Virus record (IMG/VR): IMGVR_UViG_3300034389_000010
Coordinates: 1-64,000 of that record
Strand: one strand, 5' to 3'
Source of the DNA: a virus
Length of the DNA stretch: 64,000 bases
Shown piece by piece: positions 4,089-52,585 of the stretch (its first letter is position 1; the number at the start of each line of letters is the position of its first letter). Under the pieces are notes generated by a model, which was given only the letters and a program-made list of their open reading frames with translations, was not told the DNA's origin and did no database searches. Made by a program: the position numbers and the translations under genes.

Positions 4089-4130
4089 AGGAAAGTCCGC
4101 GCAAGCGACCCCCTTCCGCAGCAGTAGGGT
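4089..4130 (+). promoter_or_regulatory. Late-promoter element (variant AGGAAAG-N29-TAGGGT) for terminase operon
   Basis: Same 36-nt offset as other copies. Confidence 0.6.
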
Positions 4131-4160
4131 TTTCCGGATGCAACGTCCGGAAAGCCCCTG

Positions 4161-4298
4161 ATGCCCAAGCCCCCACCACCCTCCCGCGCCGCCCAGCAGC
4201 GAGCCGCCCATGACTGCCTGGAGCAGCTGGCCCGCGCCATGCCCCTGGACGTGATCGAACAGGCCTTCAAGGCCGTGAAGCGGGCGCGTCGTGGCTAA
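4161..4298 (+). CDS. Small hypothetical protein (45 aa, MPKPPPPSRAAQQ...)
   Basis: Fills gap between promoter and terminase and overlaps terminase GTG. Confidence 0.4.
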   Translation: MPKPPPPSRAAQQRAAHDCLEQLARAMPLDVIEQAFKAVKRARRG

Positions 4299-5826
4299 AA
4301 AGATCGCCGCCCTCACGGCGGATCCGCGCTGGCGCGCCTTCGCCGAGCGCTACGCCCTGGACATCACCCGGTTCGCGATCGAAGTCTGCGGCATGACCGG
4401 GATCACCTGGCAGCAGGTGCAGCTGTTCGACGCGGTGTCCGGCTTCGGCTCGCGCACCACGGTGTCGTCTGGTCACGGTACCGGCAAGACGCGCGGCTTT
4501 GCCGTCATCGCCCTGTGGCACCTGCTCTGCTACGCCGACAGCAACACCTACCTGACCGCGCCCAAGCTTTCGACCCTGCAAGAGGGTATCTGGAAAGAGT
4601 TTTCGACCCTCAAAGAGGTGATCGAGCAAGGACCGCAGGGGTGGATCGCCAGCTACTTCGAGATCAAGTCCAAGAAGGTCTATGTCGTCGGCGCTGGCAT
4701 GCGCTGGTTCATCACCTGCCGGACCGCCCCGCGTGGCGCTCCGGAAAACATGGCCGGTACCCACAACAACTACCTGCTGTGGCTGGGTGACGAGGCGTCC
4801 GGTATCCCGGAGGCGAACCTCAAGGTGATCGCGGGCGCTCTGACCGACAAGCGCAACCGCTTCGCGCTGGCCAGCCAGCCCACGCGCTCCTCCGGCTACT
4901 TCTACGACACCCACCACGCCTGGGCGGTGGACAACGGCGGCAACTGGACCAACCTGGTCTTCAACTCCGAGGAATCGCCGATCGTCTCGGACGAGTTCCT
5001 GCGCGATAAGCAGCTGGAGTACGGCGGCCGCGACTCGGTCGAGTACCAGATCAAGGTCCAGGGCCGATTCCCCGAGCACAGCGACAAGTACCTGATCGGT
5101 CGGAAGGCGATCGAAAAGGCCATCGACAAGCGCGTCATCGGCGACGAGGAGCCCTATGGCAACCTGCTGGTGGTGGACGTCGCGGCCGGCGTCTACCGCG
5201 ACAAGACGGTGGCCACCCATCAGCGCGTGATCGGCACCGGCGGCCCGGAGGCCCTGGAGCCCCGGCGCATGGACGTGGTCGGGTACCCCGTCTACACCAA
5301 CAGCCTGGACTGGACCGATGCGGCCGCGCGGGTGGCGCACCAGGCGGCGGAGCTGTCGAACTGCACCGTGGTGGTGGACATCGGCGGCCAGGGCGTCCAG
5401 TTCGCCCGGATGCTGGAGCGCCTGGAGGTGCCCAACATCATCAAGGTCAACTGGGGCGAGCCCAACTTTCGGCCCGAGTACAAGCAGCGCTTCGTCAACC
5501 AGCGCGCCCAGGGCTTCGTCCACCTCAAGTACGCCATCGACCAGGGCCGCTGTGGCTTCTGCAACGAGAACACCAAGGACCTGCTGGATCAGGGCGCGCG
5601 CCTGCCGTTCTTTTTCGACGACCGCGCCCGCTGGCAGATGATGAGCAAGAACGATATGGCCAAGGAGGGGCTGTCATCCCCTGACCTGTTCGACACCCTG
5701 GCCATGGGCTTCCTGGAGAAGGTGAATTACATCCAGACCGATGGGGTGGCCACCGAGGTGACCAGCGAGCGGAAAGCCAAGGCGCGGGCCGACGTAATGG
5801 CCGCGCTGGGCTTGGGCGCGGCCTAG
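4291..5826 (+). CDS. pacB: Terminase large subunit, P1 PacB-like
   Basis: Walker A SGHGTGKT, Walker B LWLGDEASG, RNase H-like VVDVAAG ... SPDLFD. Confidence 0.88.
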   Translation: MAKKIAALTADPRWRAFAERYALDITRFAIEVCGMTGITWQQVQLFDAVSGFGSRTTVSSGHGTGKTRGFAVIALWHLLCYADSNTYLTAPKLSTLQEGIWKEFSTLKEVIEQGPQGWIASYFEIKSKKVYVVGAGMRWFITCRTAPRGAPENMAGTHNNYLLWLGDEASGIPEANLKVIAGALTDKRNRFALASQPTRSSGYFYDTHHAWAVDNGGNWTNLVFNSEESPIVSDEFLRDKQLEYGGRDSVEYQIKVQGRFPEHSDKYLIGRKAIEKAIDKRVIGDEEPYGNLLVVDVAAGVYRDKTVATHQRVIGTGGPEALEPRRMDVVGYPVYTNSLDWTDAAARVAHQAAELSNCTVVVDIGGQGVQFARMLERLEVPNIIKVNWGEPNFRPEYKQRFVNQRAQGFVHLKYAIDQGRCGFCNENTKDLLDQGARLPFFFDDRARWQMMSKNDMAKEGLSSPDLFDTLAMGFLEKVNYIQTDGVATEVTSERKAKARADVMAALGLGAA

Positions 5827-5865
5827 CCAGGCGGTAGAATGTGCGCAGCGTCACATAACTAGACT

Positions 5866-5883
5866 CACCAGGACATCACCATG
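5866..5883 (+). repeat. Start-associated repeat CACCAGGACATCACCATG
   Basis: 16-nt core identical at 27974, 54901(-), 62461(-). Confidence 0.8.
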
Positions 5884-6126: not shown

Positions 6127-6518
6127 ACGCCCAGCCGGCGGCGCCCCAGGCGCCTCGGGTCTGTCCCCGGTGCGGACATCGCTCGCATCCCAGCGAGACC
6201 GGGAATCACAACTGCGTCAGCGTGCTGCGCAACAACCTGCACGAGCTGAAATCGATCCTTGCGGCCCAGCAGATCGAGCTGGAGACGATCCGCGATCTGG
6301 TCGGTACCAAGGACCTGCGCCGAGGCCTGCAGGGCCTGCTGCGCGAGCGTGATGCACTGCGCCTGCAGGTGCCCCAGGCCTATGGTCGCGGGCTGCTGTT
6401 CGGTCAGCGGCTGGCGCGCGTCGCCCTGCGCCAGCTGGTGCGCTGGCCCCTGCGCCGGCGTGAGGGATTGCGCCACGCCCAGGCCCTGATCGATCAGGTC
6501 GAGGATCGGAAAGTCTAG
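6123..6518 (+). CDS. Hypothetical protein with CPRC-H-C zinc motif and coiled coil
   Basis: GTGA overlap with upstream stop. Confidence 0.55.
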   Translation: MNAQPAAPQAPRVCPRCGHRSHPSETGNHNCVSVLRNNLHELKSILAAQQIELETIRDLVGTKDLRRGLQGLLRERDALRLQVPQAYGRGLLFGQRLARVALRQLVRWPLRRREGLRHAQALIDQVEDRKV

Positions 6519-6548
6519 GGCTGATCACCTGCCGGCGCGGGCCACCAT
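6507..6548 (+). promoter_or_regulatory. Late-promoter element CGGAAAG-N29-CACCAT
   Basis: Conserved motif and spacing; ATG 6 nt after hexamer. Confidence 0.8.
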
Positions 6549-6554: not shown

Positions 6555-6851
6555 ATGATCGCATCCAGCAAGTTCTACCTCCTTGTCCGCCAGTTTGCCG
6601 CCTCGCGCCAGGCGTGGCAGACGGCTGTCCGCTACGACACCCTGCCCGATGAGCGCTGGGACCTCACCCTGGTTTCCCAGCGGGTCTATGGCAACCGGCA
6701 TGAGTTCCTGGCCGTCATGGCGGCCGCCGGGCTCGATCGGGTGAACCAGGAGCTGAAACAGCGCCGCCTGGTGCTGCCCACGCCCGCCCAGCTGGAGGCC
6801 TTGAAGCAGCAGGCCGGCTACACCAGCGCCAGCGTCGTGCAGGTGCGCTGA
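6555..6851 (+). CDS. Baseplate LysM/gpX-like protein (P1 gp26-like)
   Basis: DE..DLTLVSQRVYG...AVMAAAG...LVLP LysM-like pattern. Confidence 0.65.
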   Translation: MIASSKFYLLVRQFAASRQAWQTAVRYDTLPDERWDLTLVSQRVYGNRHEFLAVMAAAGLDRVNQELKQRRLVLPTPAQLEALKQQAGYTSASVVQVR

Positions 6852-7895: not shown

Positions 7896-7936
7896 CGGAA
7901 AGCCGCCCGTCCGGCCATCGCCGGCGGCGGCATCAT
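7896..7936 (+). promoter_or_regulatory. Late-promoter element CGGAAAG-N28-CATCAT
   Basis: Motif copy, spacer one nt shorter. Confidence 0.7.
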
Positions 7937-7966: not shown

Positions 7967-8248
7967 ATGAACACCACCGCCCCCGAGGCCCCGTTCTACC
8001 ACCCCGAGAACGCGCCCCTGGCCGCCAAGCTGCGCGATCTGGCTGACGCCATTACCCAGCCTGGCCACTCCGCCCTGCGCAGCGTCATCAGCGTCCTGGA
8101 CTACGAGCAAGGCACCGTGATGCCGACCGTGGCCGGTCCGGGCGACTGGCGCAGCACGGTGGGTGTGCTGACGGCGGCAGCTCACGCGGTGGTGAACCCC
8201 GAAACCGTGGAGCACCCGGTGGCGACCCCCGAAGCCATGGAGGCCTGA
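7967..8248 (+). CDS. Hypothetical late protein
   Basis: ORF behind late element. Confidence 0.6.
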   Translation: MNTTAPEAPFYHPENAPLAAKLRDLADAITQPGHSALRSVISVLDYEQGTVMPTVAGPGDWRSTVGVLTAAAHAVVNPETVEHPVATPEAMEA

Positions 8249-8251: not shown

Positions 8252-8734
8252 ATGCTGCACGCCGTCCCCGAGGGCATGCGCCGCATGGCGCGCATGGTGG
8301 TCTTGAACGGCCCCAACTCGATGCCCTGCGTGGTCTACCGCAAGGAGGTGCTGCGCGAGTCCGACACCAACGTCGGCGGCCTTCCTGACCTGGGCGGGCT
8401 CGGCGTGCTCGACAGCGAGGACGAGCCGGCCTATCGGTTCGTCGAGCTGGGCGAAGCGATGATGCGCCCCGTGGGTGATCACCACCCCATGCCCAGCAAC
8501 GTCGTGGACAGCCGCGACGGGGTCACCTACGCCGAAGGCCCGGTGATCATGCAGATCGAGGCCAAGGTGGCGGGCGCCTTCGAGATCAAGAAGCACGACC
8601 GCATCGACTGTCTGCCGGGGCTGGGTTTCGTCATCCCCTACGAGGTCGTCGGCATCACCGCGCCCGGCGCGATCCCGCCGTATCTGTTCCAGTACGTCCT
8701 GGAGCCGCGCCAGGATGAAGAGGTCGGCATCTAG
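8252..8734 (+). CDS. Putative head-closure/neck protein
   Basis: Beta-rich 160 aa, late region, GGAGG RBS; function inferred from context. Confidence 0.45.
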   Translation: MLHAVPEGMRRMARMVVLNGPNSMPCVVYRKEVLRESDTNVGGLPDLGGLGVLDSEDEPAYRFVELGEAMMRPVGDHHPMPSNVVDSRDGVTYAEGPVIMQIEAKVAGAFEIKKHDRIDCLPGLGFVIPYEVVGITAPGAIPPYLFQYVLEPRQDEEVGI

Positions 8735-8736: not shown

Positions 8737-8778
8737 CGGAAAGGGCGCCCAGGAGCGCCCCAGCCTGGCCCCTACCAT
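8737..8778 (+). promoter_or_regulatory. Late-promoter element CGGAAAG-N29-TACCAT
   Basis: Upstream of portal operon. Confidence 0.8.
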
Positions 8779-8812: not shown

Positions 8813-10444
8813 ATGGCTAAGAAACCTTTACTGAGCGGTCTGGCAGAGAGCACGAAGCGCCTGCTGGGCGTCATCGACGCGGCCGCACAGATCGACCCGA
8901 ACCAATCGGCCTACAACTACGACGGCGTGACCGTCGCCATGTTGGCCGGCAGCGGCGACAAGCCGGTGCGCAACCGGGTGCAGATTTACGAAAAGTGGTT
9001 CCGGATGATGGGGCATCCCATTATCAGTACCGCCCTGCGCGCGCACGTCACCCAGGCCCTGGGCGGTCATGAGACCAGCGGCGACACCATTTTCATGGAG
9101 CCCAAGCCTACCGCCTCGGCGGCCGAGCGCGCCCTGATCGAGGAGATCGCAAGCGACCTGCTGCCGCTGTTCAACCGGGAGGCCCATTCCCTGGCCTTTC
9201 GCGCGACCGGCTTCGGTGATGCCTACCTGCGGATCATTTTCGAGCCCGGCAAGGGCGTCGCGGATCTCTACGGCGGCGAGCTGATCCTGCCCCCGCTGAT
9301 CCAGCCCTATGAGCGCGGCAACATCACCACCGGCTACGTCTGGACCACCGGCGAGAAGGCCAGCGAGCGCCTGACCGTCAAGCAGATGGCCCGCTGCAAG
9401 ATGAAGCGGATGAACTACATCCCCCAGGTGCGCGCCCAGGAGCTGGCGCAGCGCCTGTCGCTGATCCAGGACGAGATCGAGAAGTGGCCGCACATGCCGG
9501 CGCTGGTGGGCGGCGCCTTCCTGGACGCGGCCGAGGAGCCGCACGATCGCCTGCAGACCTCGCTCGCAGGCCTTGTGGCCAACCGCATCCTGGGCTCGAT
9601 CGACGAAAGCCTGGTGACCATGAACATGGAGGGCATGACCCTCGAACAGCAGAAAAAGGCGGTGGGCAACCTCGCCCGAATGCTGGAGACCAGCAAGCGC
9701 GCGGCCCAGGCGCTGATCGACAAGGGCGAGTTTTCCACCCAGCGCATCACCCACGTCATGCCGGTGCATGGCGACAAGGCGATCACCCAGGTCCAGGCCT
9801 TCCAGGGCTCTGCGGCGACCGGGACTATCAGCATCGACGACGTCATGATCCAAGCCCGCCTGCTGGCCGGCGCCCTGGGCATGGATCTCGCCCTGCTGGG
9901 CTTTGCCGACCAGCTCGCCGGCGGCCTGGGCGAGGGCGGGTTCTTCCGCACCAGCGTCCAGGCGGCCGAGCGCTCGGACATCATCCGCACCGCCCTGACC
10001 GAGTGCTGGAACCACATCGTGGACGTCCACACCCTGGAGCGTTACGGCTACTGCTTCGACCCCGGCAAACGCCCCTACCAGTTCAACTACTTCGGCGCCA
10101 CCAGCGCTCTGGACCGCGAGCAGCAGGAGACGCGAGAGCGCTCCATGAATGCGACCTCGGTGATGGTCCAGGTTATGGAGCAGCTGCGCCAGATGGGCCT
10201 GCCCGAGGACGCCATGGCGCTGCTCATGCAGACCTCGATGGCCCTCGACGAGGACTACGCCAAGCGCCTGGCCAAGGCGATCTGCAGCGCCAAGCCGCCG
10301 GGCGATCAAGAGCCCGGTTTCGGCTTCGGTGAAGAGCCGCCCGAGCCGCCTGGCGCGCCGGACTCCGACGAGTCCGACCCCGAAGACGAACCGCCCGCCA
10401 CCCCCAAGAAAACCCGCTTCCCGAAGGCACAGACCAATGCTTAA
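8813..10444 (+). CDS. Portal protein, P1 Prt-like
   Basis: 543 aa; FGDAY.R and LLGFADQLAGGLGEGGFFRTS.QAA motifs recalled from P1-type portals; precedes protease. Confidence 0.8.
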   Translation: MAKKPLLSGLAESTKRLLGVIDAAAQIDPNQSAYNYDGVTVAMLAGSGDKPVRNRVQIYEKWFRMMGHPIISTALRAHVTQALGGHETSGDTIFMEPKPTASAAERALIEEIASDLLPLFNREAHSLAFRATGFGDAYLRIIFEPGKGVADLYGGELILPPLIQPYERGNITTGYVWTTGEKASERLTVKQMARCKMKRMNYIPQVRAQELAQRLSLIQDEIEKWPHMPALVGGAFLDAAEEPHDRLQTSLAGLVANRILGSIDESLVTMNMEGMTLEQQKKAVGNLARMLETSKRAAQALIDKGEFSTQRITHVMPVHGDKAITQVQAFQGSAATGTISIDDVMIQARLLAGALGMDLALLGFADQLAGGLGEGGFFRTSVQAAERSDIIRTALTECWNHIVDVHTLERYGYCFDPGKRPYQFNYFGATSALDREQQETRERSMNATSVMVQVMEQLRQMGLPEDAMALLMQTSMALDEDYAKRLAKAICSAKPPGDQEPGFGFGEEPPEPPGAPDSDESDPEDEPPATPKKTRFPKAQTNA

Positions 10445-11276
10445 AACCGGCGTCATCACCTACAACCTGGCCGAGCGCGGCCGCAAGGCGCGGGGCCAGG
10501 ACCGCAACCTGGATCTGCCCATGGCCGCCAAGCTGATCAACAGCCCGGCCGTGCAGGAAATGGTCGCCCAGGGCGATATGATCGGCTGGTACGGGCATTG
10601 GCCGCGCGAGAGGTTCGGCATCAACGCCGTCGAAGGCGCGGTCGTCAACGGCCAGGCAGTGGCCCTAGTGCCGGCGATCCGGACCCTGTACCTCAAGGCC
10701 TACGACGACGGCACGGTCGAGCACGAGACCCAGTTCCTCGACACCGCCGCCGGCAAGATCGCCGCGCGCAACTGGCAATCCAAGGTCGGCGGTTTTTCCT
10801 CGGCGATGCTGACCAAGGCCATTGGCCAGAAGGCGGTGGCTACCACCTTCGCCGGCTTCGACTACGTCCTGGAGCCCAACTACACCGCCAATCGCGGCTA
10901 CATCCTGGCGCTCGACGCCGTCGCCCCCGACAGTCCCGAGCATGCCCTGCTGCTGGACGCCCTGGAGCGCCAGCAGGAGCTTGAGCAGACCGCGCTGATG
11001 CTGGACAGCCTGCAGGGTCAATACGACAGCCTGCTGGCCTCTATGGCTCACCTGGGGCAGGAGAACGAGTATTACCGCGAGCGGCTGATCCGCACCGGCA
11101 TGAACCTCACCGTGCTCGATGCCGTGCGCGAGCTGCGCCAGACCCAGGCGCCGCACCCCCTGCTGCAGGCGGACGACTTCAAGGGTGCCAAGCTCGCCGG
11201 CTACCAGAAGGTCGAGGACCCCACGCCCAAGACCCCCGGCCTCTTTGGCGGCGTGCTGGCCAGGCTCGGGCTCTGA
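10437..11276 (+). CDS. Prohead (head-processing) protease, P1 Pro-like
   Basis: GWYGH, GGFSS, FDYVLEPN motifs; follows portal. Confidence 0.8.
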   Translation: MLKTGVITYNLAERGRKARGQDRNLDLPMAAKLINSPAVQEMVAQGDMIGWYGHWPRERFGINAVEGAVVNGQAVALVPAIRTLYLKAYDDGTVEHETQFLDTAAGKIAARNWQSKVGGFSSAMLTKAIGQKAVATTFAGFDYVLEPNYTANRGYILALDAVAPDSPEHALLLDALERQQELEQTALMLDSLQGQYDSLLASMAHLGQENEYYRERLIRTGMNLTVLDAVRELRQTQAPHPLLQADDFKGAKLAGYQKVEDPTPKTPGLFGGVLARLGL

Positions 11277-11279
11277 TCC

Positions 11280-17901: not shown

Positions 17902-17943
17902 CGGAAAGGGCGCCCCGGAGGCATGTGACCAAGGTCACAAAAT
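17902..17943 (+). promoter_or_regulatory. Late-promoter element CGGAAAG-N29-CAAAAT
   Basis: Upstream of tail fibre; motif sits in GGCGCCCT/AGGGCGCC hairpin. Confidence 0.8.
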
Positions 17944-22197: not shown

Positions 22198-22239
22198 CGG
22201 AAACCCTGCGCCAGGCGAGCCCTGGCGCCCCTTCACCAT
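22198..22239 (+). promoter_or_regulatory. Late-promoter element CGGAAAC-N29-CACCAT
   Basis: Variant last base, same spacing. Confidence 0.75.
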
Positions 22240-22959: not shown

Positions 22960-23481
22960 ATGGGCGAGGTCGTGCTGCTGTTCTCCCGCACCCGGACGCT
23001 GCACAGCCTCGCCGTGCGGCTGTTCACCGGCTCGCCCTGGTCGCACGTCGAGTTCATCGACGGCCGCAACGTGATCGGCGCCCTGCCCGGTGGCGTGGCC
23101 CTGGACAGCCTGCAGCGCCGCCTGGAGAGCGTTTCGGCCTACCAGGTGGTGCGGGTGCCCTGCCCTGAGCCGCGCCGCATCCTGGCGGCCTGCTATGGCC
23201 AGCTGGGCAAGCCCTATGACTTCCTCGGCATCCTGGGCCTGGTGACCCGCCGGCGCCGGTGGCAGCAGGCCAGCAGCTGGTTCTGCAGCGAGCTGGTGTC
23301 CTGGTGCTTTGCCGCTGCCGGCCGCCCGCTGTTCCGGGACAACCAGGTCTGGCGCGTCACGCCCCAGCACCTGTGGATGCTCAAATTTCCGGACTCCCTC
23401 CCGGAAAGCGTCACCGGGGCGCTGCCGCTGGCCACCCTACTATCCACCACCGACAACCAGACATCGGAGTACAACCCGTGA
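22960..23481 (+). CDS. Permuted papain-like NlpC/P60 (YiiX/YaeF-type) enzyme
   Basis: WSHVE ... GKPYDF ... WFCSELV ... VTP. Confidence 0.8.
   Translation: MGEVVLLFSRTRTLHSLAVRLFTGSPWSHVEFIDGRNVIGALPGGVALDSLQRRLESVSAYQVVRVPCPEPRRILAACYGQLGKPYDFLGILGLVTRRRRWQQASSWFCSELVSWCFAAAGRPLFRDNQVWRVTPQHLWMLKFPDSLPESVTGALPLATLLSTTDNQTSEYNP
23402..23443 (+). promoter_or_regulatory. Late-promoter element CGGAAAG-N29-TACTAT (inside 3' end of upstream CDS)
   Basis: Motif and spacing. Confidence 0.8.
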
Positions 23482-25669: not shown

Positions 25670-25711
25670 CGGAAAGCAGGGGCAGGAGCCCCGTCTGCAG
25701 AGCGCCAGAAT
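25670..25711 (+). promoter_or_regulatory. Late-promoter element CGGAAAG-N29-CAGAAT
   Basis: Upstream of hdf-like gene. Confidence 0.8.
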
Positions 25712-26906: not shown

Positions 26907-27328
26907 AATGTCCCACCTGCGGCCGCGCTGAAATGGCTCAAGACACGCGCGACATTTTTTATACCTACAAGGGCGCAAGGACAAAGATCAAAGCTGTGAC
27001 GGCTCAGTTCTGCCCAGCTTGCAACGAGTATGTTGCGACCATTGATGAGTCCGAGCGCATCACCGATGAAATGCTGGCATTCCAGCGCAAGACGAATGCC
27101 CTGCGGGTCAATCCTGGCTTTGTGCGTACCGTTCGTCGCAAGCTCGGCCTGGGCCAAAAAGAGGCCGGGGTGCTGTTTGGTGGCGGCGTGAATGCCTTCT
27201 CGCGCTACGAGAAAGGCGTTATCGAGCCGCCTGTGGCCACCGTGCAGCTGCTGCGCGTTCTGGACCGCCATCCCGAGCTGCTGGAAGAGGTCCGCGCCGA
27301 TACGGCCGCAACACCCGCGAGCGCCTAG
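26903..27328 (+). CDS. mqsA: MqsA antitoxin (zinc ribbon + HTH)
   Basis: CPTC...CPAC, RRKLGL.Q.EA..LFGGGVNAFSRYE.G. Confidence 0.95.
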   Translation: MKCPTCGRAEMAQDTRDIFYTYKGARTKIKAVTAQFCPACNEYVATIDESERITDEMLAFQRKTNALRVNPGFVRTVRRKLGLGQKEAGVLFGGGVNAFSRYEKGVIEPPVATVQLLRVLDRHPELLEEVRADTAATPASA

Positions 27329-27810
27329 AACGACAGCACCGAATACAGCCCTGCCAGCTCGTCGGCCACGCTTTCGGCCGCGCACAGGCTGAGCTGCCGA
27401 TCGGCAAAGCCGCAAGCGGCCAGCACGGCCAGCTGGCCATTGGTGATGTCGGGCGCAATTTGATAGCGCGGGCCATTCTCGTCGAAGCCGACCTTGACGA
27501 TGCTGTTCTTCGGATCGTGCCGGCCCAGCTGCTCGATGATGTCGAGCGTGCCCTGGGTGCTGCGCGTGAAGTAGCTGGCGATCGCCTTGCGGATATGGTC
27601 GTCGGTGAACAGCCAGTCGGCCGCATCCAGATGCTGATTCGTCACCAGGGCGAACCCCTCCCTGCGCACCTCGCGCGCCTCACGCTCCTCGGCGGCGATC
27701 ACCACCACGTTCGTGTCCGTCTTGAGGGCGCAGATCAGCGTGATGCCTGGCCCCTCATAGCCGCAGATGCTGACCTCGATGGGCTGGATGTTCGGGGGTG
27801 ATTCGGTCAT
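27325..27810 (-). CDS. Conserved phage hypothetical protein
   Basis: Good codon use, GAGG RBS, TAGTAT -10 at 27863-27868(-). Confidence 0.65.
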   Translation of the reverse strand: MTESPPNIQPIEVSICGYEGPGITLICALKTDTNVVVIAAEEREAREVRREGFALVTNQHLDAADWLFTDDHIRKAIASYFTRSTQGTLDIIEQLGRHDPKNSIVKVGFDENGPRYQIAPDITNGQLAVLAACGFADRQLSLCAAESVADELAGLYSVLSF

Positions 27811-27973
27811 GGCTTGCCTCGCTGGGGATATGCAAGTGACTTGCATATTTGGGTATCAGGTGATACTAATTTGCCGTCGATCGACGTAGGGCAGGCAGCT
27901 TATCCGCTGGCGCTTGCCCTGCTCGGTACGGTTACCGATTAGGTGGGCACAGACCTGCCGCCCAAGAACGCAC

Positions 27974-28537: not shown

Positions 28538-28579
28538 CGGAAAGCCGACCCGAAAGCCACCCTCGCCGGCGCCGATCAT
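28538..28579 (+). promoter_or_regulatory. Late-promoter element CGGAAAG-N29-GATCAT
   Basis: ATG of darA-like gene 6 nt after hexamer. Confidence 0.8.
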
Positions 28580-31125: not shown

Positions 31126-31167
31126 CGGAAAGCCCGGCGAAGCGCCCCCTCTGGCGCACGCGATCAT
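31126..31167 (+). promoter_or_regulatory. Late-promoter element CGGAAAG-N29-GATCAT
   Basis: Immediately after terminator, upstream of ddrB-like operon. Confidence 0.8.
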
Positions 31168-39901: not shown

Positions 39902-39943
39902 CGGAAAGTCCCGAAAATGGGGTGTCCGTCACGCTTTTATCGT
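39902..39943 (+). promoter_or_regulatory. Late-promoter element CGGAAAG-N29-TATCGT
   Basis: Upstream of capsid operon. Confidence 0.8.
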
Positions 39944-42301: not shown

Positions 42302-42651
42302 CCACCCGTAAGAGCAAGGCCGACGTGGCCACCGACGCCCCGGCCGACACCGCCGATGCTGTGGCGGTCACCGAGCCCAAGGTGCTGGTGATCGGCGCCG
42401 GCATGGACGTGGGCGTGCTGATCGAGCGGTTCGGCGAGGGCCTTGTGTACCCCGCCGACCTGACCATCAGCAACAGCCATCACAAGGCGCTGGTGCTGTC
42501 GCAGGCCCAGCCGATCCGCGTGATCGACGCCGGCGAGAGCGTGCAGCACACCGTGAACAACCCGGCCCAGCTGCACGACGTGATTTTCGGAATGGTGGCC
42601 GTGGGGGACCGTTTGGAGCGGGACACCATAGGCACCATCACCCAGGCCTAA
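42298..42651 (+). CDS. Hypothetical virion protein
   Basis: ATGA coupling. Confidence 0.55.
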   Translation: MTTRKSKADVATDAPADTADAVAVTEPKVLVIGAGMDVGVLIERFGEGLVYPADLTISNSHHKALVLSQAQPIRVIDAGESVQHTVNNPAQLHDVIFGMVAVGDRLERDTIGTITQA

Positions 42652-42664
42652 AGGGGCTCTATTC

Positions 42665-44287: not shown

Positions 44288-44296
44288 GGAGCCCTC

Positions 44297-45196: not shown

Positions 45197-45199
45197 GCC

Positions 45200-46132
45200 A
45201 TGAGCGTCTTTGACGGACTGAGTTCGACACTGTCGAGCGCCGCCAAAGGCGCAGGCTCGGTGCTTTCGGGCGCCACCAGTGGCCTGGTACATGACATCGG
45301 CGGCGAGGTCCTGGGATCTGTCGGGGACTCCGGCAGCATCCTGGGCACCCTTGCCGGCGCCCTGGGCGGGGTGTTCGACACCTTCGGCGCCCGCCAGACC
45401 TGGGGCCGCCTCAATCCCAAGTTGCTCGCCCAGCTCTACGCCTGCGACAAGGAGGGCAACATGGTCGAAACCGGCTATGTGGCCGGTCCGATCAGCGACG
45501 ACAACATGGAGATTGGCCTCAACTGGCAGAGCCCGTTCGAGAACTCGGGTCCCGAGACCAAGGTGCCCTCGATCATGGCGCTGCTGCAGAGCGGCCAGGC
45601 GGCCACGGTGATCAACGCCCTGCAGGTGTCCGGCGTGCTCGGTACCAGCGAGGAGCTGAACACCATCGCCGACAACGCCAAGAAAGCAGCCGCTGCCTTG
45701 GAAGGCCGCACCGGCATCACCAAGGTGAACAGCCGGCAGGTATTTTCGGGCATGCCGCCGATCAAGGTGTCGATGACCCTGCACATGCGGGCGCTGGTGG
45801 ATGCGCAGCGCGAGCTGATGGAGCAGTACAACCGCCTGCTGTCCTGGTCCCTGCCCCAGCAGCTGGCCGAGGACAGCTACCTGACCGGCATCATCCGCCA
45901 GGGTGGTGACGTGACGGAAATGGTCAAGGCGCTGTTCCCCTCCGAGGCGCCGCGCATGGTGTCGTTCCACTACGGGCCGCTGGCCTTTCCGCCCATGGTC
46001 ATCGAGCACGTCGGCCACCCGCTGAGCGCGCCGCAGAACAAGGACGGCAACTGGATCCAGCTACCGGTGCAGATCACCCTGGCGACGCTCACAGCGATGG
46101 ACCGGCAGGACCTGGTCTATTTCTTCCGCTGA
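45200..46132 (+). CDS. Tube-fold/baseplate protein (PmgG-like)
   Basis: WQSPFEN, NSRQVF.G.PP; position. Confidence 0.55.
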   Translation: MSVFDGLSSTLSSAAKGAGSVLSGATSGLVHDIGGEVLGSVGDSGSILGTLAGALGGVFDTFGARQTWGRLNPKLLAQLYACDKEGNMVETGYVAGPISDDNMEIGLNWQSPFENSGPETKVPSIMALLQSGQAATVINALQVSGVLGTSEELNTIADNAKKAAAALEGRTGITKVNSRQVFSGMPPIKVSMTLHMRALVDAQRELMEQYNRLLSWSLPQQLAEDSYLTGIIRQGGDVTEMVKALFPSEAPRMVSFHYGPLAFPPMVIEHVGHPLSAPQNKDGNWIQLPVQITLATLTAMDRQDLVYFFR

Positions 46133-46181
46133 TCGAAAGCTACGACGCCGGCACCTGAGCGGGCCGGCGTCGCTGGCATCT

Positions 46182-47162
46182 CTACTTGAACGCCTTTCCC
46201 GCCACCGAGGTGCGTAGGTGCCGCCACAGTGGACGTTCCAGGATGAAATGGAAGGCAACAGCCAGCGCCAGCGCGAGGCCAAAGACCAGCAAGAACTGCC
46301 ACCCCTTCTCCAGGTGCAAAGGCTCGGTGAGCCATATCATCGGGAAATGAAACACAAATAGTCCGTAAGACGTAGCCCCTGCGTATTGCTGCAATGTGTG
46401 CATTGCCGGTGAAAGTCTGGCTTTGCTGGTCAGCAGGATCAGGGGAATGCCCAGTAAGATACCGGCGCTTACTTCCAAGTCAGGCACTTGCCGCGTCCCT
46501 GTGATTAGCAGTGCTGCCACATGCAGCAATGCCAGCACGCAGATGGCAGCCAGTAGGCATCTGCTCGCGAGTGTTCGCCGCTCTATCAAAACGCCGATCA
46601 TGAATACAAAAAGCACACCAAAAAGCAGTCGGTATCCATACCAATCGGCATGCAGCACGCCAATATGCGCGCAAATAAATACGACGAAACTTCCCGCTGC
46701 ACACAGCGCCCCTACCCTGGGGTATGTGAGAAGCAGAGGCATGATCAGATAGAACTGCAATTCGGCCCCTAGCGACCATGCCGGCGGTATCAGCGTGAAT
46801 CTATCAATACCGTTATACATATAGTAGTTAAGAGGTACGATGGTCAGATTGCCTAGCCATGACGCTATGTTGCTGGCCTCTGATAGGTAGTAAGACTTTG
46901 CACCTGATAGCCAAATCCCTGTCGCCACCAGTAGTGCAGCAAAATAAAGTGGATATATCCTTAATAGCCTGTCGGTATAAAACCACTTTATAGATGGTAG
47001 CAGGTCAGCGTGGGGGCGTTTCGCCCACAACTTCGTTACTACATGACCAGCCAGCATATAGAAAATTATGACTGCCCATACCCCGACGTTGTAACCCAGC
47101 GGCTCAATGCCTACATGGCTGACCACCACCAGGGTGGCGAGAAGAAAACGTAGAAACCCCAT
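46182..47162 (-). CDS. Acyltransferase-3 (OafA/Oac-like) O-acyltransferase moron
   Basis: LRF.LA..VV.SH, AV.IFY.LAG, R.LRIYP, PAWSLG.ELQFY, SYG.F.FH.P; multi-TM; low GC; opposite strand. Confidence 0.9.
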   Translation of the reverse strand: MGFLRFLLATLVVVSHVGIEPLGYNVGVWAVIIFYMLAGHVVTKLWAKRPHADLLPSIKWFYTDRLLRIYPLYFAALLVATGIWLSGAKSYYLSEASNIASWLGNLTIVPLNYYMYNGIDRFTLIPPAWSLGAELQFYLIMPLLLTYPRVGALCAAGSFVVFICAHIGVLHADWYGYRLLFGVLFVFMIGVLIERRTLASRCLLAAICVLALLHVAALLITGTRQVPDLEVSAGILLGIPLILLTSKARLSPAMHTLQQYAGATSYGLFVFHFPMIWLTEPLHLEKGWQFLLVFGLALALAVAFHFILERPLWRHLRTSVAGKAFK

Positions 47163-47243
47163 TTCGTTGCAGTGCCTTGTCCTAAAGGCGCGAATACTAA
47201 CGTGGCACAGCCTTGCCTGTACCAAATGAGGCTGTGTTCCTTT

Positions 47244-47285
47244 CGGAAAGTCTCCCCGAGAGGCCCCAGGCCTGCGCCCCACACT
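47244..47285 (+). promoter_or_regulatory. Late-promoter element CGGAAAG-N29-CACACT
   Basis: Upstream of tube operon. Confidence 0.8.
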
Positions 47286-47314
47286 CTGCCCATTACTCGC
47301 ATTGGGAGAGCCCC

Positions 47315-47788
47315 ATGACTGTATCCACCGAGGCCTACATGGCCCAAATGATCAACGAAACCCTCGCCCTGGGCGACAAGACCCTCAGTTCCGACGCGCA
47401 CTTCGTGATCGACGGTTTCGAGAACCTGACCGTGCTGGCCAAGCAGTTTCCCTGGCCCGTGCTGACCCCCGAGGGCGAGATCGAAACCCCCGCCCCCATG
47501 GGCATCAAGATCGGCCAGCCGCAGCAGATCAATGCGTTCCAGCGCAGCCCGATCGCCTTCATGGAAACCCGCGCGGGCCACATCGAAAAGATGATCCGCG
47601 AGATCAACGAGAAGGGCGGCCGCTTCAATGCCCGGATCTACGAAGGCACCCGCGAAAACCCGCTGCGCACCGCGCGGATCTTCAACTGCTGGGTGCAGAT
47701 GGAGCCGATCGATCGCGACATCGAGAACCGCGCGCAGATCGTGCTGTGGTCCGGCACCCTCTTCTACCACTACACCGGCGAGGCCTAA
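47315..47788 (+). CDS. Tail tube protein (P1 BplB-like)
   Basis: 157 aa beta-rich tube-like pattern, strong codon bias. Confidence 0.6.
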   Translation: MTVSTEAYMAQMINETLALGDKTLSSDAHFVIDGFENLTVLAKQFPWPVLTPEGEIETPAPMGIKIGQPQQINAFQRSPIAFMETRAGHIEKMIREINEKGGRFNARIYEGTRENPLRTARIFNCWVQMEPIDRDIENRAQIVLWSGTLFYHYTGEA

Positions 47789-47791
47789 GCC

Positions 47792-48337
47792 ATGCGCTGC
47801 TCGGTGCTGCTGGCCAGTTACGTCGCCGTCCGCCCGCTCGGCATCATCCTTGAGGATGACCAGCTGGCGCGCAGCCTGAAACGGTCCATCCGGTTCTATT
47901 GCGGCTATGCCACGCTGACCCATGCGCCGAGCGCCTTCGAGATCCTGCTGCAGGACGCCGAGGCGGCGCGCATCGCGGCCGAGCGCCAGCAGATCGACCT
48001 GCTGGGTATCGGCGGCGTGCTCACGCCCTGGGAACGCGCCGCGCTGCCGAAGGTGCCGCTGTACGCCCCGCGCGGGGTGGACGTGCATTCCCCGGTCGAT
48101 GCCAGCAACGGCTTCATCGGCGACCAGGACTTCGACCTGACGCCGAGCGAATACGCACTGATCTGGCCGCTGTTCGAGCTGTATGTGGAGTTGGAGAACG
48201 CCGAGGCCCTGGAAGCCTCGCGCGCCAGCGGCATGGACGGCTGGGGCCGCAGCACCGACACCATCCGCGCCGAGATCGAGCAGACCGAGGAGCGGATGAG
48301 CAAGGCCGCCTTCGAGTTCGAGTGCATCACCCTATGA
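47792..48337 (+). CDS. Head-tail adaptor-like protein (PmgC-like)
   Basis: FYCGYA, EYALI.PLF.LY.E.E.A..LEASR. Confidence 0.5.
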   Translation: MRCSVLLASYVAVRPLGIILEDDQLARSLKRSIRFYCGYATLTHAPSAFEILLQDAEAARIAAERQQIDLLGIGGVLTPWERAALPKVPLYAPRGVDVHSPVDASNGFIGDQDFDLTPSEYALIWPLFELYVELENAEALEASRASGMDGWGRSTDTIRAEIEQTEERMSKAAFEFECITL

Positions 48338-49008
48338 GCGTGTTCGATCGCATCGCCAACCAGGTCGGACAGAACTACCTGTCCGCCCTGGGCCAGGCCT
48401 CCCCGCTGATCAAGTTCGGTACCGACCTGCTGAGCCAAAAGCTCACCAGCCGGGTCAAGCTCGGCAAGCGGGCGCTATTCGGCGGCCTGTCGGAGAGCAA
48501 CTGGCGCGGGATGATCGAGGACTTCATTTCGATCGACCGCAGCAAGGCCAACCTCTTCCACTTCAACGCCACCAACCTGCAGACCGGCACCGCGCCGGAT
48601 CTGAATATGTTCGTGATCGGCTTCCAGGCCTCGCCCATGACGGTGCGCGGCGAGTCGGTACCGATCGGCGCCAGCTTCTACGACAAGGTCGAGGGGATGG
48701 ACGCCGTCCAGCTGCGCGTCACCACCATGGACGACGCCGGCGGCTCGGTGAAGACCTGGTTCAAGAACATGCACCGGGCGATGGCCCCCGGCGACGGCAC
48801 GGTCGGCATGCCGCTGTCCTACCTGGTCCGGATCACCATCACCCACGCCTTCCCCAGCCAGAAGTCGGACGGCGCCGGCGGCGCCTTCGTCGATAGCTGG
48901 GTCATGCGCCCCGGCTCGATCGAGTACGAGGGCGATCGCCGCAATGACGGCCTGCAGGAGCTGCAGCTGTCGTTCGTTCAATTCGACGGTTTTTCCAACC
49001 TGATCTAG
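48334..49008 (+). CDS. Tube initiator-like protein (P1 Tub-like)
   Basis: T.DD..G...WF......DGT...P..Y tube fold pattern. Confidence 0.55.
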   Translation: MSVFDRIANQVGQNYLSALGQASPLIKFGTDLLSQKLTSRVKLGKRALFGGLSESNWRGMIEDFISIDRSKANLFHFNATNLQTGTAPDLNMFVIGFQASPMTVRGESVPIGASFYDKVEGMDAVQLRVTTMDDAGGSVKTWFKNMHRAMAPGDGTVGMPLSYLVRITITHAFPSQKSDGAGGAFVDSWVMRPGSIEYEGDRRNDGLQELQLSFVQFDGFSNLI

Positions 49009-49015
49009 GTGGTTC

Positions 49016-49801
49016 ATGCGCCATATCGCCCCGTACCGCACGCCCCGCATCGGCGTGGATCTCAAAGAGCTGACCTTGGGCGCCGCCATCGTGCTGACCG
49101 CCCGGCCCTTTACCACCTACGAGGCCAACCAGGGCGCGTGCCTGGCGGCGATCGTGGAGCGCCACGAGGATCGGGATGGCCAGGTGACCGATCTGCGTCT
49201 GTGGACCGTCCAGGAGCGGCACGCGGTGATCTCGCACTACCTGGCGCACACCTTCGACAGCTTCGACTTCCCGGTCGGCGAGAATGCCCGCTTCTCGAAC
49301 TACCTGCTGATGGAGCGGCCCATGGCCGAGCCGGTCGCGCTGGGGCCGATCGCCGATGACGAGTGGACCCTGCTGCCGCTGCTGGGCCTCTACGCCGAGT
49401 CGATCGAGCGCCTGATGGCCCAGCAGCGCATCCCCGCAAAGCGCCACGGCTGGGTGATCGCCTGCATGGCCGCGCAGATGCGTTCCACCGACGCCCGCGA
49501 GTCCGAGTTCCTGGCCAAGTGCAACCTGCCCAATGCCGCGCACCAGGACCTGCCCGAGGCCCTGGTGGACGACTGGCTGGAGCGCCGCGTGCAGATGCTG
49601 CTCAACACCGCCGAAAGCGACTTCGCCGACCTGATGGGCGCCTACCTTGCCGGCTTCGAGCAGCAACAGCACCTGGTGCGCATGGCGCATCACGACGATG
49701 GCCTGGTACTGGTCGGGGAGGCGCCGGGGCTGCCCCCGGCCCGATTTCCAGTTTCCGACCTGTTTGGACGCCAAACGCAACGACTTCTTGGTATCGCTTG
49801 A
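49016..49801 (+). CDS. Tail assembly protein (PmgB-like)
   Basis: WTVQER....HYL; context. Confidence 0.5.
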   Translation: MRHIAPYRTPRIGVDLKELTLGAAIVLTARPFTTYEANQGACLAAIVERHEDRDGQVTDLRLWTVQERHAVISHYLAHTFDSFDFPVGENARFSNYLLMERPMAEPVALGPIADDEWTLLPLLGLYAESIERLMAQQRIPAKRHGWVIACMAAQMRSTDARESEFLAKCNLPNAAHQDLPEALVDDWLERRVQMLLNTAESDFADLMGAYLAGFEQQQHLVRMAHHDDGLVLVGEAPGLPPARFPVSDLFGRQTQRLLGIA

Positions 49802-49820
49802 GAACCGGCGCAACGAGCTG

Positions 49821-50021
49821 ATGCTGCACTTCGGCCAGCCCTTCGGCCACGCCGGCCAGATCCCGCTGAGCGCGGCCGATCGCATGATCGAGTCCAAGGC
49901 CTTCGAGCTGTGGCGCAAGATGGACGAGAACAAGGACGAGCTGATGATTCACCTGATGAAGCGGGTGGACACCGTCACCAAGGCCGTCGTCAGCCTGGGC
50001 AATGCCCTGGCCAGCCGGTAG
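49821..50021 (+). CDS. Small protein, possible second part of tail assembly chaperone
   Basis: Good codon use; frame open from 49647. Confidence 0.45.
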   Translation: MLHFGQPFGHAGQIPLSAADRMIESKAFELWRKMDENKDELMIHLMKRVDTVTKAVVSLGNALASR

Positions 50022-50034
50022 CGCTTAGCGCAAT

Positions 50035-50076
50035 CGGAAAGCCCCCGGTGGGGCGCTGCTCCGGCGCCCCCACACT
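50035..50076 (+). promoter_or_regulatory. Late-promoter element CGGAAAG-N29-CACACT
   Basis: Upstream of lysis cassette. Confidence 0.8.
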
Positions 50077-50105
50077 CTGGCCATCACCTGACGCCGGAGT
50101 CTTCC

Positions 50106-50420
50106 ATGACCCCCAACACTCACACCCGCCTCAAGTCCCTGTTCGACAAGGGTGCCTGGCTGCTCATGCTGCCCGCTGCCCTGCTGCTGTTCTTCATCGA
50201 CCCCGCCATGCTCCTGACCATCCTGCAGTGGCTGCTGGTGGGCCTGGTCATCGCCGGCGTGACCATCATCGTCAGCCGCATCATGTTCCCGCAGGTCAGC
50301 ATGCCCTGGCTGGTGGCCGAGATCGCCAAGGGCAACATAGCCGCAGGCCTCACGGCCGCCGCGCTGATCCTGTTCGTGGGCATCATCTTCCTGGGGCTGG
50401 TGCTATGGGCCAAAGCATGA
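50106..50420 (+). CDS. Putative holin
   Basis: 104 aa, three hydrophobic segments, precedes endolysin. Confidence 0.7.
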   Translation: MTPNTHTRLKSLFDKGAWLLMLPAALLLFFIDPAMLLTILQWLLVGLVIAGVTIIVSRIMFPQVSMPWLVAEIAKGNIAAGLTAAALILFVGIIFLGLVLWAKA

Positions 50421-51181
50421 CGGGCGTGGGCGCTGGCAGCGCCCTGGTACGCGGCCTGCTCGCCCTGCTGGTGGCCATCTTCCTCGCCGCCATGGTGGCG
50501 ATCGGCCTGACCCTGCCGGGCTCGGCCTTCGCCGCCGAGGTGCCGGCCGCCGCCAAGCCGCTGCTGCCGATCCTGGCGCAGCAGCAGCGCACCACCTGGC
50601 CGGACCTGGTGGCGCCCGAGTTCCTGGCCGGGCAGATCGAGCAGGAGTCCTGCCTGTCGCTGACCCACTCCAAGTGCTGGAACCCGCGCGCCGAGCTGAA
50701 AACCAAGCGCGAGAACGGCATCGGCCTGGGCCAGTTCACCCGCGCCTATAGGGCTGATGGCTCGATCCGCTTCGACAAGATCGGCGAGCTGGCGGCCGCC
50801 TACCCCTCCCTCAAGGGCTGGGGCTGGGCGAACCGCTACGACGCCCGGTACCAGCTGACCGCCCTGGTGGAAATGGATCACGGCCTGTACCGCCAGGTGC
50901 GCGACGCGGCGACCGAGCGCGATCGCAAGGCCTTCACCCTGTCGGGCTACAACGGCGGCGCCGGCGGCGTGCTGCAGGACCGGCGCCTGTGCGGAAACAC
51001 CCGAGGCTGTGACCCTGGGCGCTGGGCGGGCCACGTCGAGCGCACCAGCCTCAAGTCCCGCGTGCCGGTACCGGGCTACAAGCAGTCCTTTTTCGCGATC
51101 AATCGCGAGTACGTCCACAACATCCTGGACGTGCGCAGCGCTAAGTACCGCGCCTATTTCGTGGAGCCTCCCCATGGGTGA
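50417..51181 (+). CDS. Endolysin, lytic transglycosylase with N-terminal signal/SAR segment
   Basis: QIEQES..WNP.A, GLGQF, YNGG.G, NREYV; hydrophobic N-terminus ending AFA. Confidence 0.85.
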   Translation: MTGVGAGSALVRGLLALLVAIFLAAMVAIGLTLPGSAFAAEVPAAAKPLLPILAQQQRTTWPDLVAPEFLAGQIEQESCLSLTHSKCWNPRAELKTKRENGIGLGQFTRAYRADGSIRFDKIGELAAAYPSLKGWGWANRYDARYQLTALVEMDHGLYRQVRDAATERDRKAFTLSGYNGGAGGVLQDRRLCGNTRGCDPGRWAGHVERTSLKSRVPVPGYKQSFFAINREYVHNILDVRSAKYRAYFVEPPHG

Positions 51182-51386
51182 TGACAACAAGATCCCCGAG
51201 GTTCGTTTGGCGCTGCTGGAGCATCGCCTGGGGAAAATTGAGGAAGACATCAAGGGACTGCCAGAGAAATTCGCCTCGATAAAGGAATTTCTGATCGTCC
51301 GAAACCTGGTGTTCACCGGGGTCGGGTCCGTTCTTCTGTCCGTCCTGGGCGGCCTGCTCGCCCTGGTGAAGAGTCTCCCATCATGA
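51174..51386 (+). CDS. Small coiled-coil plus C-terminal TM protein
   Basis: Sequence pattern. Confidence 0.55.
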   Translation: MGDDNKIPEVRLALLEHRLGKIEEDIKGLPEKFASIKEFLIVRNLVFTGVGSVLLSVLGGLLALVKSLPS

Positions 51387-51856
51387 AAAACCTACTCAAC
51401 AAGCACGTTCCGCCCCACATTTTCTGGCCGTCCTTTCTGCTGCTGATCTTTGGCGGCATGGCGGGCGCGATCCTGAGCATCATGGTGGTGGGCAGTAATC
51501 CGTTCCAGGTGACGAACCTGGGCACGATCAACGTCGCCGGCGAGGCGCAGACCCAGTTCCATCCCGGCGACGTCGTGGTGGTCCGCCGGCAGGTCTGCAC
51601 CGACAAGGGCGTCACCCTGACGTTCTATCCGGGGATGCGCAGCGGCCAGGGCGTGCTGTTCGCGCTGCCCGTGGGCGCCTCCCGCTTCGCCCAGGGCTGT
51701 CGCGAGACGCTGTATGGCTTCGTGCTGCCCGCGCAGATCCTGCCCGGCACCTACACCTACCAGAACCTGGTCCAGTACCAGACCAACTGGATCGGCCGGG
51801 ATGAGGCAAACGTCTACCCGCCCCTGACCTTCGAGGTGGTGGCCAATGATCACTGA
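51383..51856 (+). CDS. Membrane-anchored periplasmic protein
   Basis: N-terminal TM, two Cys, beta domain. Confidence 0.6.
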   Translation: MKNLLNKHVPPHIFWPSFLLLIFGGMAGAILSIMVVGSNPFQVTNLGTINVAGEAQTQFHPGDVVVVRRQVCTDKGVTLTFYPGMRSGQGVLFALPVGASRFAQGCRETLYGFVLPAQILPGTYTYQNLVQYQTNWIGRDEANVYPPLTFEVVANDH

Positions 51857-52259
51857 CACCCTGATGAAACCCCTGTACGTCGCCCTCGCCCTGCTGGCGG
51901 CGCTGGGCTTCGGCGTCGGGACCTACGTCGTGGTCGGCTGGCAGATGGAGAACACCTATCTGCACCAGCTCAACGACAGCAAGACCACCATCATCAACCA
52001 GAACACCAGCATTCTGACCCTAACGCAGAATCAGACGACACTGCAGGCGGCGATCCAGCGGCAGAATCAGGCGGTGGAGCTGGCCGAGGAGCGCACCCGG
52101 CACGCCGAGCAGCAGCAGGCCCTGGCCAAGGCGGCGCTGGCCAGCCAGGCCAAGCAGAGCGATGCACGCATTGTCGGCCTGCAGAAGGATCTGGCGAACG
52201 TCCAGGTGACGCTGGCCACCCTGCTGCGCAAGAACTGGGAGGCGAGCCGCCATGAGTGA
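51846..52259 (+). CDS. i-spanin (Rz-like)
   Basis: N-terminal TM and coiled coil. Confidence 0.75.
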   Translation: MITDTLMKPLYVALALLAALGFGVGTYVVVGWQMENTYLHQLNDSKTTIINQNTSILTLTQNQTTLQAAIQRQNQAVELAEERTRHAEQQQALAKAALASQAKQSDARIVGLQKDLANVQVTLATLLRKNWEASRHE

Positions 52260-52575
52260 TCTTGCGAAGTTGTTGCTGCTGTTCCTGTTCGTGCTGGCGC
52301 TGTCGGCCTGCGGATCCTCGCCCACGGCCCCGCTGGTGCCCAAGATCGAGACGGTCGAGGTCAAGGTGCCGGTTTCCACGCCGTGCATCGTCGAGGCCCC
52401 CGCCCGGCCGTTGTACGCCTGGGGCAAGGGCGACTATCCAGGCGACAAGGCCGCCGTGGGCATCCTGCTGATCGACCATGAGCGGTCCGTGCAGTACGGC
52501 AAGGCCTGGGAGGCGGCCAGCACGGGGTGCGTCCGGAGCGTTTCGGAAAGTGCCAGCGTAACGCCATCACCCTGA
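52252..52575 (+). CDS. o-spanin lipoprotein (Rz1-like)
   Basis: Lipobox LSAC, Pro-rich VEVKVPV..PC. Confidence 0.8.
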   Translation: MSDLAKLLLLFLFVLALSACGSSPTAPLVPKIETVEVKVPVSTPCIVEAPARPLYAWGKGDYPGDKAAVGILLIDHERSVQYGKAWEAASTGCVRSVSESASVTPSP

Positions 52576-52585
52576 GCCCTACCCT
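52544..52585 (+). promoter_or_regulatory. Late-promoter element CGGAAAG-N29-TACCCT
   Basis: Motif and spacing. Confidence 0.75.

Follow-up and report, generated by a model that had tools for sequence, protein, structure and literature searches.

Bacteriophage P1 is the model phage-plasmid, and its late switch (the activator Lpa, a box in the '-22 region' and the host protein SspA) has been assumed to be typical of the group. In P1 late promoters an inverted repeat of 9 bp (AAGTGACTT) stands 4 bp before the -10 element, and the promoters are activated by Lpa plus SspA. Here we describe a different arrangement in IMG/VR record IMGVR_UViG_3300034389_000010, a single contig of 97,934 bp (65.6% G+C, rated 100% complete) which, judging from its gene content and relatives, is a P1-like phage-plasmid of Pseudomonas. 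We analysed the first 64 kb of the record (the window; coordinates above 64,000 are genome coordinates outside it), where a short asymmetric box, CGGAAAG, recurs at a fixed distance from a -10-like hexamer at the heads of operons. These sites are probably activator-dependent late promoters, and the genome would hold about 17 similar ones for particle, packaging and lysis genes.

The window contains 16 copies of CGGAAAG where 6.4 are expected, 14 of them on the + strand and 2 on the - strand. Once A and T of the -10 hexamer are required at offsets 38 and 42 counted from the box C (CGGAAAG-N30-A-N3-T), 11 matches are found against 0.17 expected, and the maximum among shuffles was 2. Two variant boxes, CGGAAAC at 22198 and AGGAAAG at 4089, likewise have a hexamer at offset 36. 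The original prediction, made from the window alone, had listed 14 sites including these variants; all its coordinates are exact and its hexamers right, it had correctly singled out 7896 as the site with a spacer one nucleotide shorter, and the CGGAAAG copies at 4148 and 5770 do lack a hexamer, as it said. The 28-nt variant at 7896 may be weaker or non-functional, and its ortholog in a relative (G002, 8277) has the standard 29-nt spacer. The box starts 2-19 nt after the stop codon of the preceding gene, and the predicted leaders measure 0-56 nt. The sites are listed in Table 1.

A gapped motif search over this and related genomes, which the original prediction had proposed, bore the motif out. 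We used the source genome and three complete IMG/VR relatives (G001, G002 and G003; terminase identity 73-74%). The spacing between box and hexamer is essentially invariant: 65 of the 124 plus-strand GGAAAG copies have the A and T of the hexamer at N30 (GGAAAG-N30-A-N3-T), with 6 at N29, 5 at N31, about 3 at each remaining offset and 2 on the opposite strand.

To read base preferences we aligned 57 sites from the same four genomes, in which GGAAAG, A-11 and T-7 had been fixed by the search. Among the positions left free, -49 is a pyrimidine (Y) in 56 of 57 sites (T 39, C 17), -48 is C or G, and -41 is again Y. Position -12 is Y in 50/57 (T 28, C 22, A never), A predominates at -8 and at the predicted +1 (33/57 each), and -5 is G. 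There is no conservation upstream of -50 and, apart from the -10 region, information is confined to -49..-41, where the box is non-palindromic. The full consensus reads Y[C/G]GGAAAGY, 28 nt, YAnnaT, 6 nt, A; the CGGAAAG of the original prediction is retained as a core, and its length is corrected to a box that spans -49..-41. The predicted +1, usually A, lies 48 nt after the box C and in the window is often the A of a CAT. The absence of a -35 consensus, also claimed originally, holds: T is depleted at -35..-30, and a scan of 33001-53000 for sigma-70 consensus promoters found 0 against 1.7 expected by chance. The hexamer has the marks of a sigma-70-type -10 (A-11, T-7, Y-12, A-8 and a purine start), with the histogram peaking at N30 only.

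At two sites, 6507 and 28538, a start codon begins right at the predicted +1 (6555, wedge gene; 28586, InPase-DarA_N gene), and therefore these mRNAs would be leaderless. Orthologs of the wedge gene in G001-G003 keep the ATG 6-7 nt after the hexamer. These ATGs give independent support, at the level of sequence, to the putative start point and, along with the invariant A-11 and T-7 and the purine at +1, speak for the reading of the sites as promoters that had been proposed.

We assign the source to the P1-like phage-plasmids of Pseudomonas because of its P1 homologs, its Pfam and PHROGs matches, its closest cultured relative and the plant metagenomes in which it occurs. Distant homologs of P1 PacB, gp25, portal, Pro, BplA, S and DarA are present in the genome, as are those of DdrB, gp23, sheath, gp21, HrdC, Ssb and Ref. 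Matches to Pfam and PHROGs include DarA_N, LPD1, an LPD3-methyltransferase (DarB-like), an SLT domain, baseplate wedge, tail tube, holin and ParA/ParB-like proteins. Among cultured relatives, pPRS08-11306, a plasmid of Pseudomonas psychrotolerans, is the nearest (capsid identity 71%), and the DNA sequencing runs containing the source sequence are leaf and plant metagenomes. Scans of the window with Rfam and for tRNA genes gave no matches.

The promoter motif is kept in the relatives. G001-G003 have 15-16 gene-strand matches each, with 0-1 on the other strand and 0-1 for a reversed-pattern control, and pPRS08-11306 has 18, in a record that is partly duplicated. In nine sets of orthologous promoters the pairwise identity is 0.93 for the box, 0.75 for the hexamer and 0.39 for the spacer, whose length is never altered; on sequence comparison this is the phylogenetic footprint of two elements at a fixed distance. 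Among more distant P1-like elements (capsid identity 35-44%) GGAAAG is rare, and the same geometry occurs with other boxes: at least nine Lpa-less P1-like elements combine it with clade-specific ones. The box [C/T]GCAAA[C/G] with 29 nt is found in plasmids of P. atacamensis, P. putida (pKF715C) and P. fluorescens (DR133), in 13 copies each with 0-4 on the other strand. CGGAAAA, also with 29 nt, is found in Xanthomonas phage Rb1 and in an Ideonella element, and in the latter 10/21 GGAAAA copies have that offset. One Acinetobacter plasmid has GGAATA with 27 nt (14/30 at that offset). Four more IMG/VR records, which encode the candidate regulator of the XRE family described below, have strand-biased GGAAA[G/T/A]-N29 sites.

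Much of the late programme is common to the source and P1. Both have PacB, portal, gp23, sheath, DarA and mat homologs, about 12 promoters heading virion, lysis and packaging operons, a weak YANNNT -10 with no -35, and a putative activator gene upstream of the terminase genes. The promoters themselves are unlike those of P1, as had been predicted: the source-genome box is asymmetric and lies 29 bp upstream of the -10, against an inverted repeat at 4 bp. P1 late promoters have ACAAGTGACTT four bases from the -10, and none of the source-genome sites has such a box; a P1-type 9-bp repeat 4 bp from the -10 is found at 0/14 window sites. AAGTNACTT is present in the genome in two copies only, at 27834 and 30966, neither at a GGAAAG site. 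Lpa (PF25716 / phrog_1704) has no match in the source genome at E <= 10 and no tblastn match, and is absent from 12 relatives; the same search in P1, as a control, gave 192.7 bits.

A palindrome, GCAAGT[G/C]ACTTGC, occurs twice in the window, at 27824-27844, where it is extended to 21 bp (ATATGCAAGTGACTTGCATAT) between the mat homolog and the divergent open reading frame (ORF) 27914, and at 30963-30975. Its core, AAGTGACTT, is the P1 Lpa box, and on the minus strand at 30966 the palindrome, 4 nt and TATAGT reproduce the exact P1 late-promoter layout in a genome that does not encode Lpa. G003 has 10 copies, G001 and G002 have 0, and this patchy distribution looks more like that of a repressor operator.

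Other phages offer partial parallels. The source promoters resemble the Mor- and C-dependent middle and late promoters of Mu in lacking a -35 beside the -10, in the placing of the activator site, here putative, with its centre in the mid -40s, and in a geometry that stays fixed over several late promoters. Mor and C sites are dyads of about 20 bp, bound by dimers and centred near -43.5, whereas the source has a single asymmetric box of 7-9 bp; no search for Mor/C-family proteins was made. The lambdoid repressors cI and C2 activate PRM from OR2, centred at about -42, via sigma region 4, and the controller C proteins of restriction-modification systems are comparable. A candidate with an XRE/Cro-C1 helix-turn-helix (HTH) and a box just upstream of the -35 position recall this arrangement. 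Proteins of the cI/C2 type are dimers on palindromic operators and control one promoter, whereas here 15-20 promoters share a box the size of a half-site, and the candidate ends in a four-helix region unrelated to theirs. The late promoters of P2, 186 and P4 are also several, -35-less and served by a small activator (Ogr, B or Delta), and the common fixed spacing of the source promoters is like theirs; the Ogr site is TGT-N12-ACA near -55, whereas in the source nothing is conserved upstream of -50 and the zinc-finger ORF of the window (DUF3268) does not track the motif. In a limited literature search we found no description of a promoter grammar of this kind, and nothing relevant on the motif or on phage Rb1; for mat, it yielded no more than an essentiality table.

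We propose that host sigma-70 polymerase would read the weak -10 (Y-12 A-11 n n a-8 T-7) and start 7 nt past the hexamer, usually at the A of a CAT. There being no -35, its role would be taken by a phage-encoded activator on the asymmetric Y[C/G]GGAAAGY box at -49..-41. That site would adjoin sigma region 4 and the alpha C-terminal domain, so that the activator could recruit or stabilise the polymerase. The strictly fixed 29-bp spacer would set the geometry, and its sequence is free and may often serve to form an RNA hairpin by which the transcript of the preceding operon is terminated or protected. Since Lpa-less relatives keep the layout with box variants of their own, the putative activator would be a different one.

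Of the proteins that are not clearly structural, only three were found in every element: RdgC, the mat homolog and an XRE-type protein encoded at genome 74599-75312, outside the window. The last is the most likely candidate for an activator acting on the box, with a probability that we put somewhat below even; a small share goes to the mat homolog, and the rest to another phage protein or a host factor. In these elements the protein is 229-237 aa long, with an XRE/Cro-C1 HTH followed by four long helices. Pfam matches (HTH_3/HTH_31) are below the curated cut-off, and in a profile comparison with the PDB the HTH is closest to ImmR (2.3e-11) and P22 C2 (3e-7). The predicted fold superimposes on P22 C2 with a TM score of 0.79-0.81, and residues 20-90 of the model have a per-residue confidence (pLDDT) of 84-90; the modelling indicates that the candidate carries a five-helix XRE/Cro-C1 HTH domain. 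It has no homology to Lpa (hhalign probability 0.3%).

The family was found with jackhmmer in 8/8 genomes and also in W01, W07 and W08, further elements of the comparison, and was not found in P1. At E <= 1e-10 it comprises 156 clusters, of which, among the 150 listed, about 100 are full-length (205-260 aa). The gene lies upstream of that for the small terminase subunit (TerS), directly so in Rb1, W03, W05, W07 and W08; in W04 it adjoins the large-subunit gene (TerL), and TerS was not found. It stands at the end of an early recombination block (resolvase, a small Cys-rich ORF and NinB), in the slot that matches that of lpa in the P1 gene order lpa-pacA-pacB.

Two other candidates had been named in the original prediction, and neither could be kept. 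The zinc-finger ORF 3573-4085 (DUF3268) has no homolog in G003, W03, W04 and W05, which show the same geometry, and DUF3268 occurs in >500 unrelated phages. The HTH ORF 62519-62731 (62522-62731, 70 aa, a real ORF only on the - strand) is confined to the source genome, with no homolog in any relative. The minus-strand ORF 48375-48638 was rejected as spurious, being antisense to a coding frame. Inspection of spacing and sequence led us to discard readings of the motif as a PIP-box (TTCG-N15-TTCG), a sigma-32 or a sigma-54 promoter. A second XRE-type HTH protein (54250-54903, minus strand, 217 aa) has no homolog in close relatives, a variability that would fit an immunity repressor.

Several points weigh against an activator-dependent late promoter read by the XRE protein. 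We infer transcription start at the sites, late timing and protein binding to the box from sequence features; for start and timing, a point against the proposal is that no RNA sequencing run containing this DNA was listed for 38500-47500 of the window. The recognition helices of the XRE proteins do not sort cleanly with box class: G001 has a GGAAAG box and a GCAAAS-like helix. XRE-type proteins are usually dimeric on dyad sites, and no second half-site or dyad is visible around the box in the 57 sites. The co-occurrence of the XRE protein with this promoter type is confounded by common ancestry, because all elements examined are P1-like. Finally, given the significant enrichment of hairpins in the spacers, part of the module may act at the RNA level.

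The box might also be read by something other than the XRE protein. It is unlikely that no phage protein is involved and that the box serves as an UP-like contact of the polymerase (through AAA at -45..-43) or is read by a host protein, whether a transcription factor or an alternative sigma factor. The A-tract of the box does fall in the region of the proximal UP subsite, which extends from -46 to -38, and G-S-A-A-A/T is kept in all clade variants; moreover, the activator role of any protein is something we infer. Yet Pseudomonas phages differ in their boxes (GGAAAG against GCAAA[C/G]), and such differences within one genus are better accounted for by a phage-specific reader. Conservation of the G/C flanks equals that of the A-tract, the 29-bp distance matches no sigma -35/-10 spacing, and constitutive virion genes would be odd in a plasmid prophage. 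It appears distinctly unlikely that late activation depends on the mat homolog in place of the XRE protein, either as the activator itself or as an indispensable co-factor, and we rank the mat homolog as a second candidate. Every relative has it; in the Pseudomonas clades its gene lies on the opposite strand within the late arm, lacks a late box and stands behind the 21-bp palindrome that resembles an operator; and P1 mat is annotated as 'maturation control' under C1 control. Against it, P1 has both mat and Lpa, and mat therefore does not track promoter type; in Rb1, pBVIE05 and the Ideonella element the homolog is on the late-gene strand, in Rb1 apparently inside a late operon. No DNA-binding domain was found in it, its AlphaFold model is poor (pLDDT 60.7) and the ESM Atlas offered no usable match. 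Direct reading of the bipartite signal by a phage-encoded sigma factor or RNA polymerase is extremely unlikely. The spacing is as rigid as in recognition by a single protein, and the box resembles the -35 elements of extracytoplasmic function (ECF) sigma factors, which are of the GGAAC/GAAAC type and are followed after 16-17 nt by a CGT-type -10. The 29-nt spacer is far from this value, nothing is conserved 16-17 bp past the box, and A-11 and T-7 suit a housekeeping-type -10. Sigma70_r2 finds no match in the genome, where r4-like HTH matches all stay below threshold, and no polymerase-like domain was found among the scanned proteins.

The spacers bear on a further alternative, in which GGAAAG and a hairpin form a processing, termination or antitermination signal in RNA at operon 3' ends, the hexamer being separate or incidental. 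The original prediction had described the spacers as unrelated in sequence, which holds, yet they are enriched in hairpins and its description needs that correction. The 57 spacers fold better than shuffles (mean z -1.15; 17/57 below -1.5) and better than GC-matched genomic windows (p = 4e-4). Many loops are of the GAAA type. In the GCAAAS clade, as in the orthologs of the capsid promoter, the stem is followed by a T-run that reaches into the -10. Even so, we consider this alternative very unlikely. A strong hairpin is present at only about 1/3 of the sites, and hairpin length and position vary whereas the distance from the box to A-11 and T-7 never does, which points to a ruler at the DNA level. 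For canonical terminators, 33-53 kb shows no enrichment (13 against 9.2 expected, a single one on the + strand), and the predicted leaderless starts suit a promoter. On our reading the hairpins belong to the 3' end of the upstream transcript as optional structures; they sit in a spacer free in sequence and are no part of the recognition signal.

Table 1. Putative late promoters of IMGVR_UViG_3300034389_000010 and the mat homolog of the late arm.
Feature	Position	Strand	Box	Spacer	Hexamer	Predicted +1	Genes and remarks
Promoter	4089..4130	+	AGGAAAG	29 nt	TAGGGT	4137	Small ORF, then PacB-like large terminase 4291-5826; orthologous site in G001 (59459) and W01
Promoter	6507..6548	+	CGGAAAG	29 nt	CACCAT	6555	Baseplate-wedge gene 6555-6851
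Variant site	7896..7936	+	CGGAAAG	28 nt	CATCAT		Ahead of ORFs 7967-8248 and 8252-8734
Promoter	8737..8778	+	CGGAAAG	29 nt	TACCAT	8785	Portal, pro, SLT tape-measure-like, baseplate and GDSL genes (8813-17887)
Promoter	17902..17943	+	CGGAAAG	29 nt	CAAAAT		Ahead of tail-fibre gene 18006-21605
Promoter	22198..22239	+	CGGAAAC	29 nt	CACCAT		Ahead of ORF 22270-22956; 8-bp GC hairpin in spacer
Promoter	23402..23443	+	CGGAAAG	29 nt	TACTAT		Ahead of ORF 23478-24260 and following tail/baseplate genes
Promoter	25670..25711	+	CGGAAAG	29 nt	CAGAAT		Ahead of DarA_N-domain gene 25738-26481
mat homolog	27325..27846	-					phrog_4179 match; same family matches P1 within mat
Promoter	28538..28579	+	CGGAAAG	29 nt	GATCAT	28586	InPase + DarA_N gene 28586-30910
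Promoter	31126..31167	+	CGGAAAG	29 nt	GATCAT		LPD1, DdrB-like and DarB-like polyvalent protein genes (31196-39899); preceded by T-run terminator
Promoter	39902..39943	+	CGGAAAG	29 nt	TATCGT	39950	Ahead of major capsid gene 39999-41663, then sheath gene
Promoter	47244..47285	+	CGGAAAG	29 nt	CACACT	47292	Ahead of tail-tube gene 47315-47788
Promoter	50035..50076	+	CGGAAAG	29 nt	CACACT	50083	Ahead of holin 50106-50420 and lysis genes
Promoter	52544..52585	+	CGGAAAG	29 nt	TACCCT		Overlaps 3' end of ORF 52252-52575; next gene an unannotated 111-aa ORF
Copy outside window	79193						Ahead of TerS
Copy outside window	85366
Copy outside window	97092

Full copies of box, N29 and hexamer also lie inside coding sequences of the early operon, at genome 70478 (a helicase-loader-like ORF), 71373 (the Cys-rich N-terminal extension of a dUTPase) and 73825 (an 84-aa Cys-rich ORF). 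Those at 71373 and 73825 are conserved in G001, and that at 73825 also in G002 and W01; coding constraint and promoter function are indistinguishable here. If functional, the copy at 73825 could allow positive feedback onto NinB and the XRE gene. An AT-rich inverted repeat occupies 26520-26566, with arms of about 16 nt (ATTACGCCATGCTTA..TAAGCATGGCGTAAT), in the gap after gene 25738-26481; related stretches rich in GCCATG/CATGGC lie near 53030-53065, 54137 and 59890. The Acinetobacter oleivorans plasmid NZ_CP110255.1 has at least 12 tandem 30-bp repeats (..TTCATCGAAGACATGTCATGATCCATACCT..), iteron-like in appearance, at about 37.3-37.7 kb of the record (about 44.9-45.3 kb on the reverse complement).

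These results describe a broad environmental branch of P1-like elements that has a different promoter grammar and no Lpa. A wider scenario, which we put forward tentatively and regard as possible rather than probable, is that in a large Lpa-less branch (Pseudomonas, Xanthomonas, Burkholderiales and perhaps Acinetobacter, with boxes GGAAAG, GCAAAS, GGAAAA and GGAATA) Lpa was replaced in the same slot by the XRE protein, with a single -45 box, a 29-bp ruler, orthogonal box-activator pairs and reuse of the spacer for hairpins. If the proposed activator proves right, a late regulator would have undergone non-orthologous replacement while its position in the genome was conserved, the silencing of virion genes in these plasmid prophages would be explained, and several compact, probably orthogonal promoter-activator pairs usable in Pseudomonas and relatives would become available. 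Since a cultured host of a related plasmid exists (P. psychrotolerans PRS08-11306, CP018759.1), the question is directly testable. The motif already permits annotation, from sequence alone, of late operons, leaderless genes and unexpected members of the late regulon.

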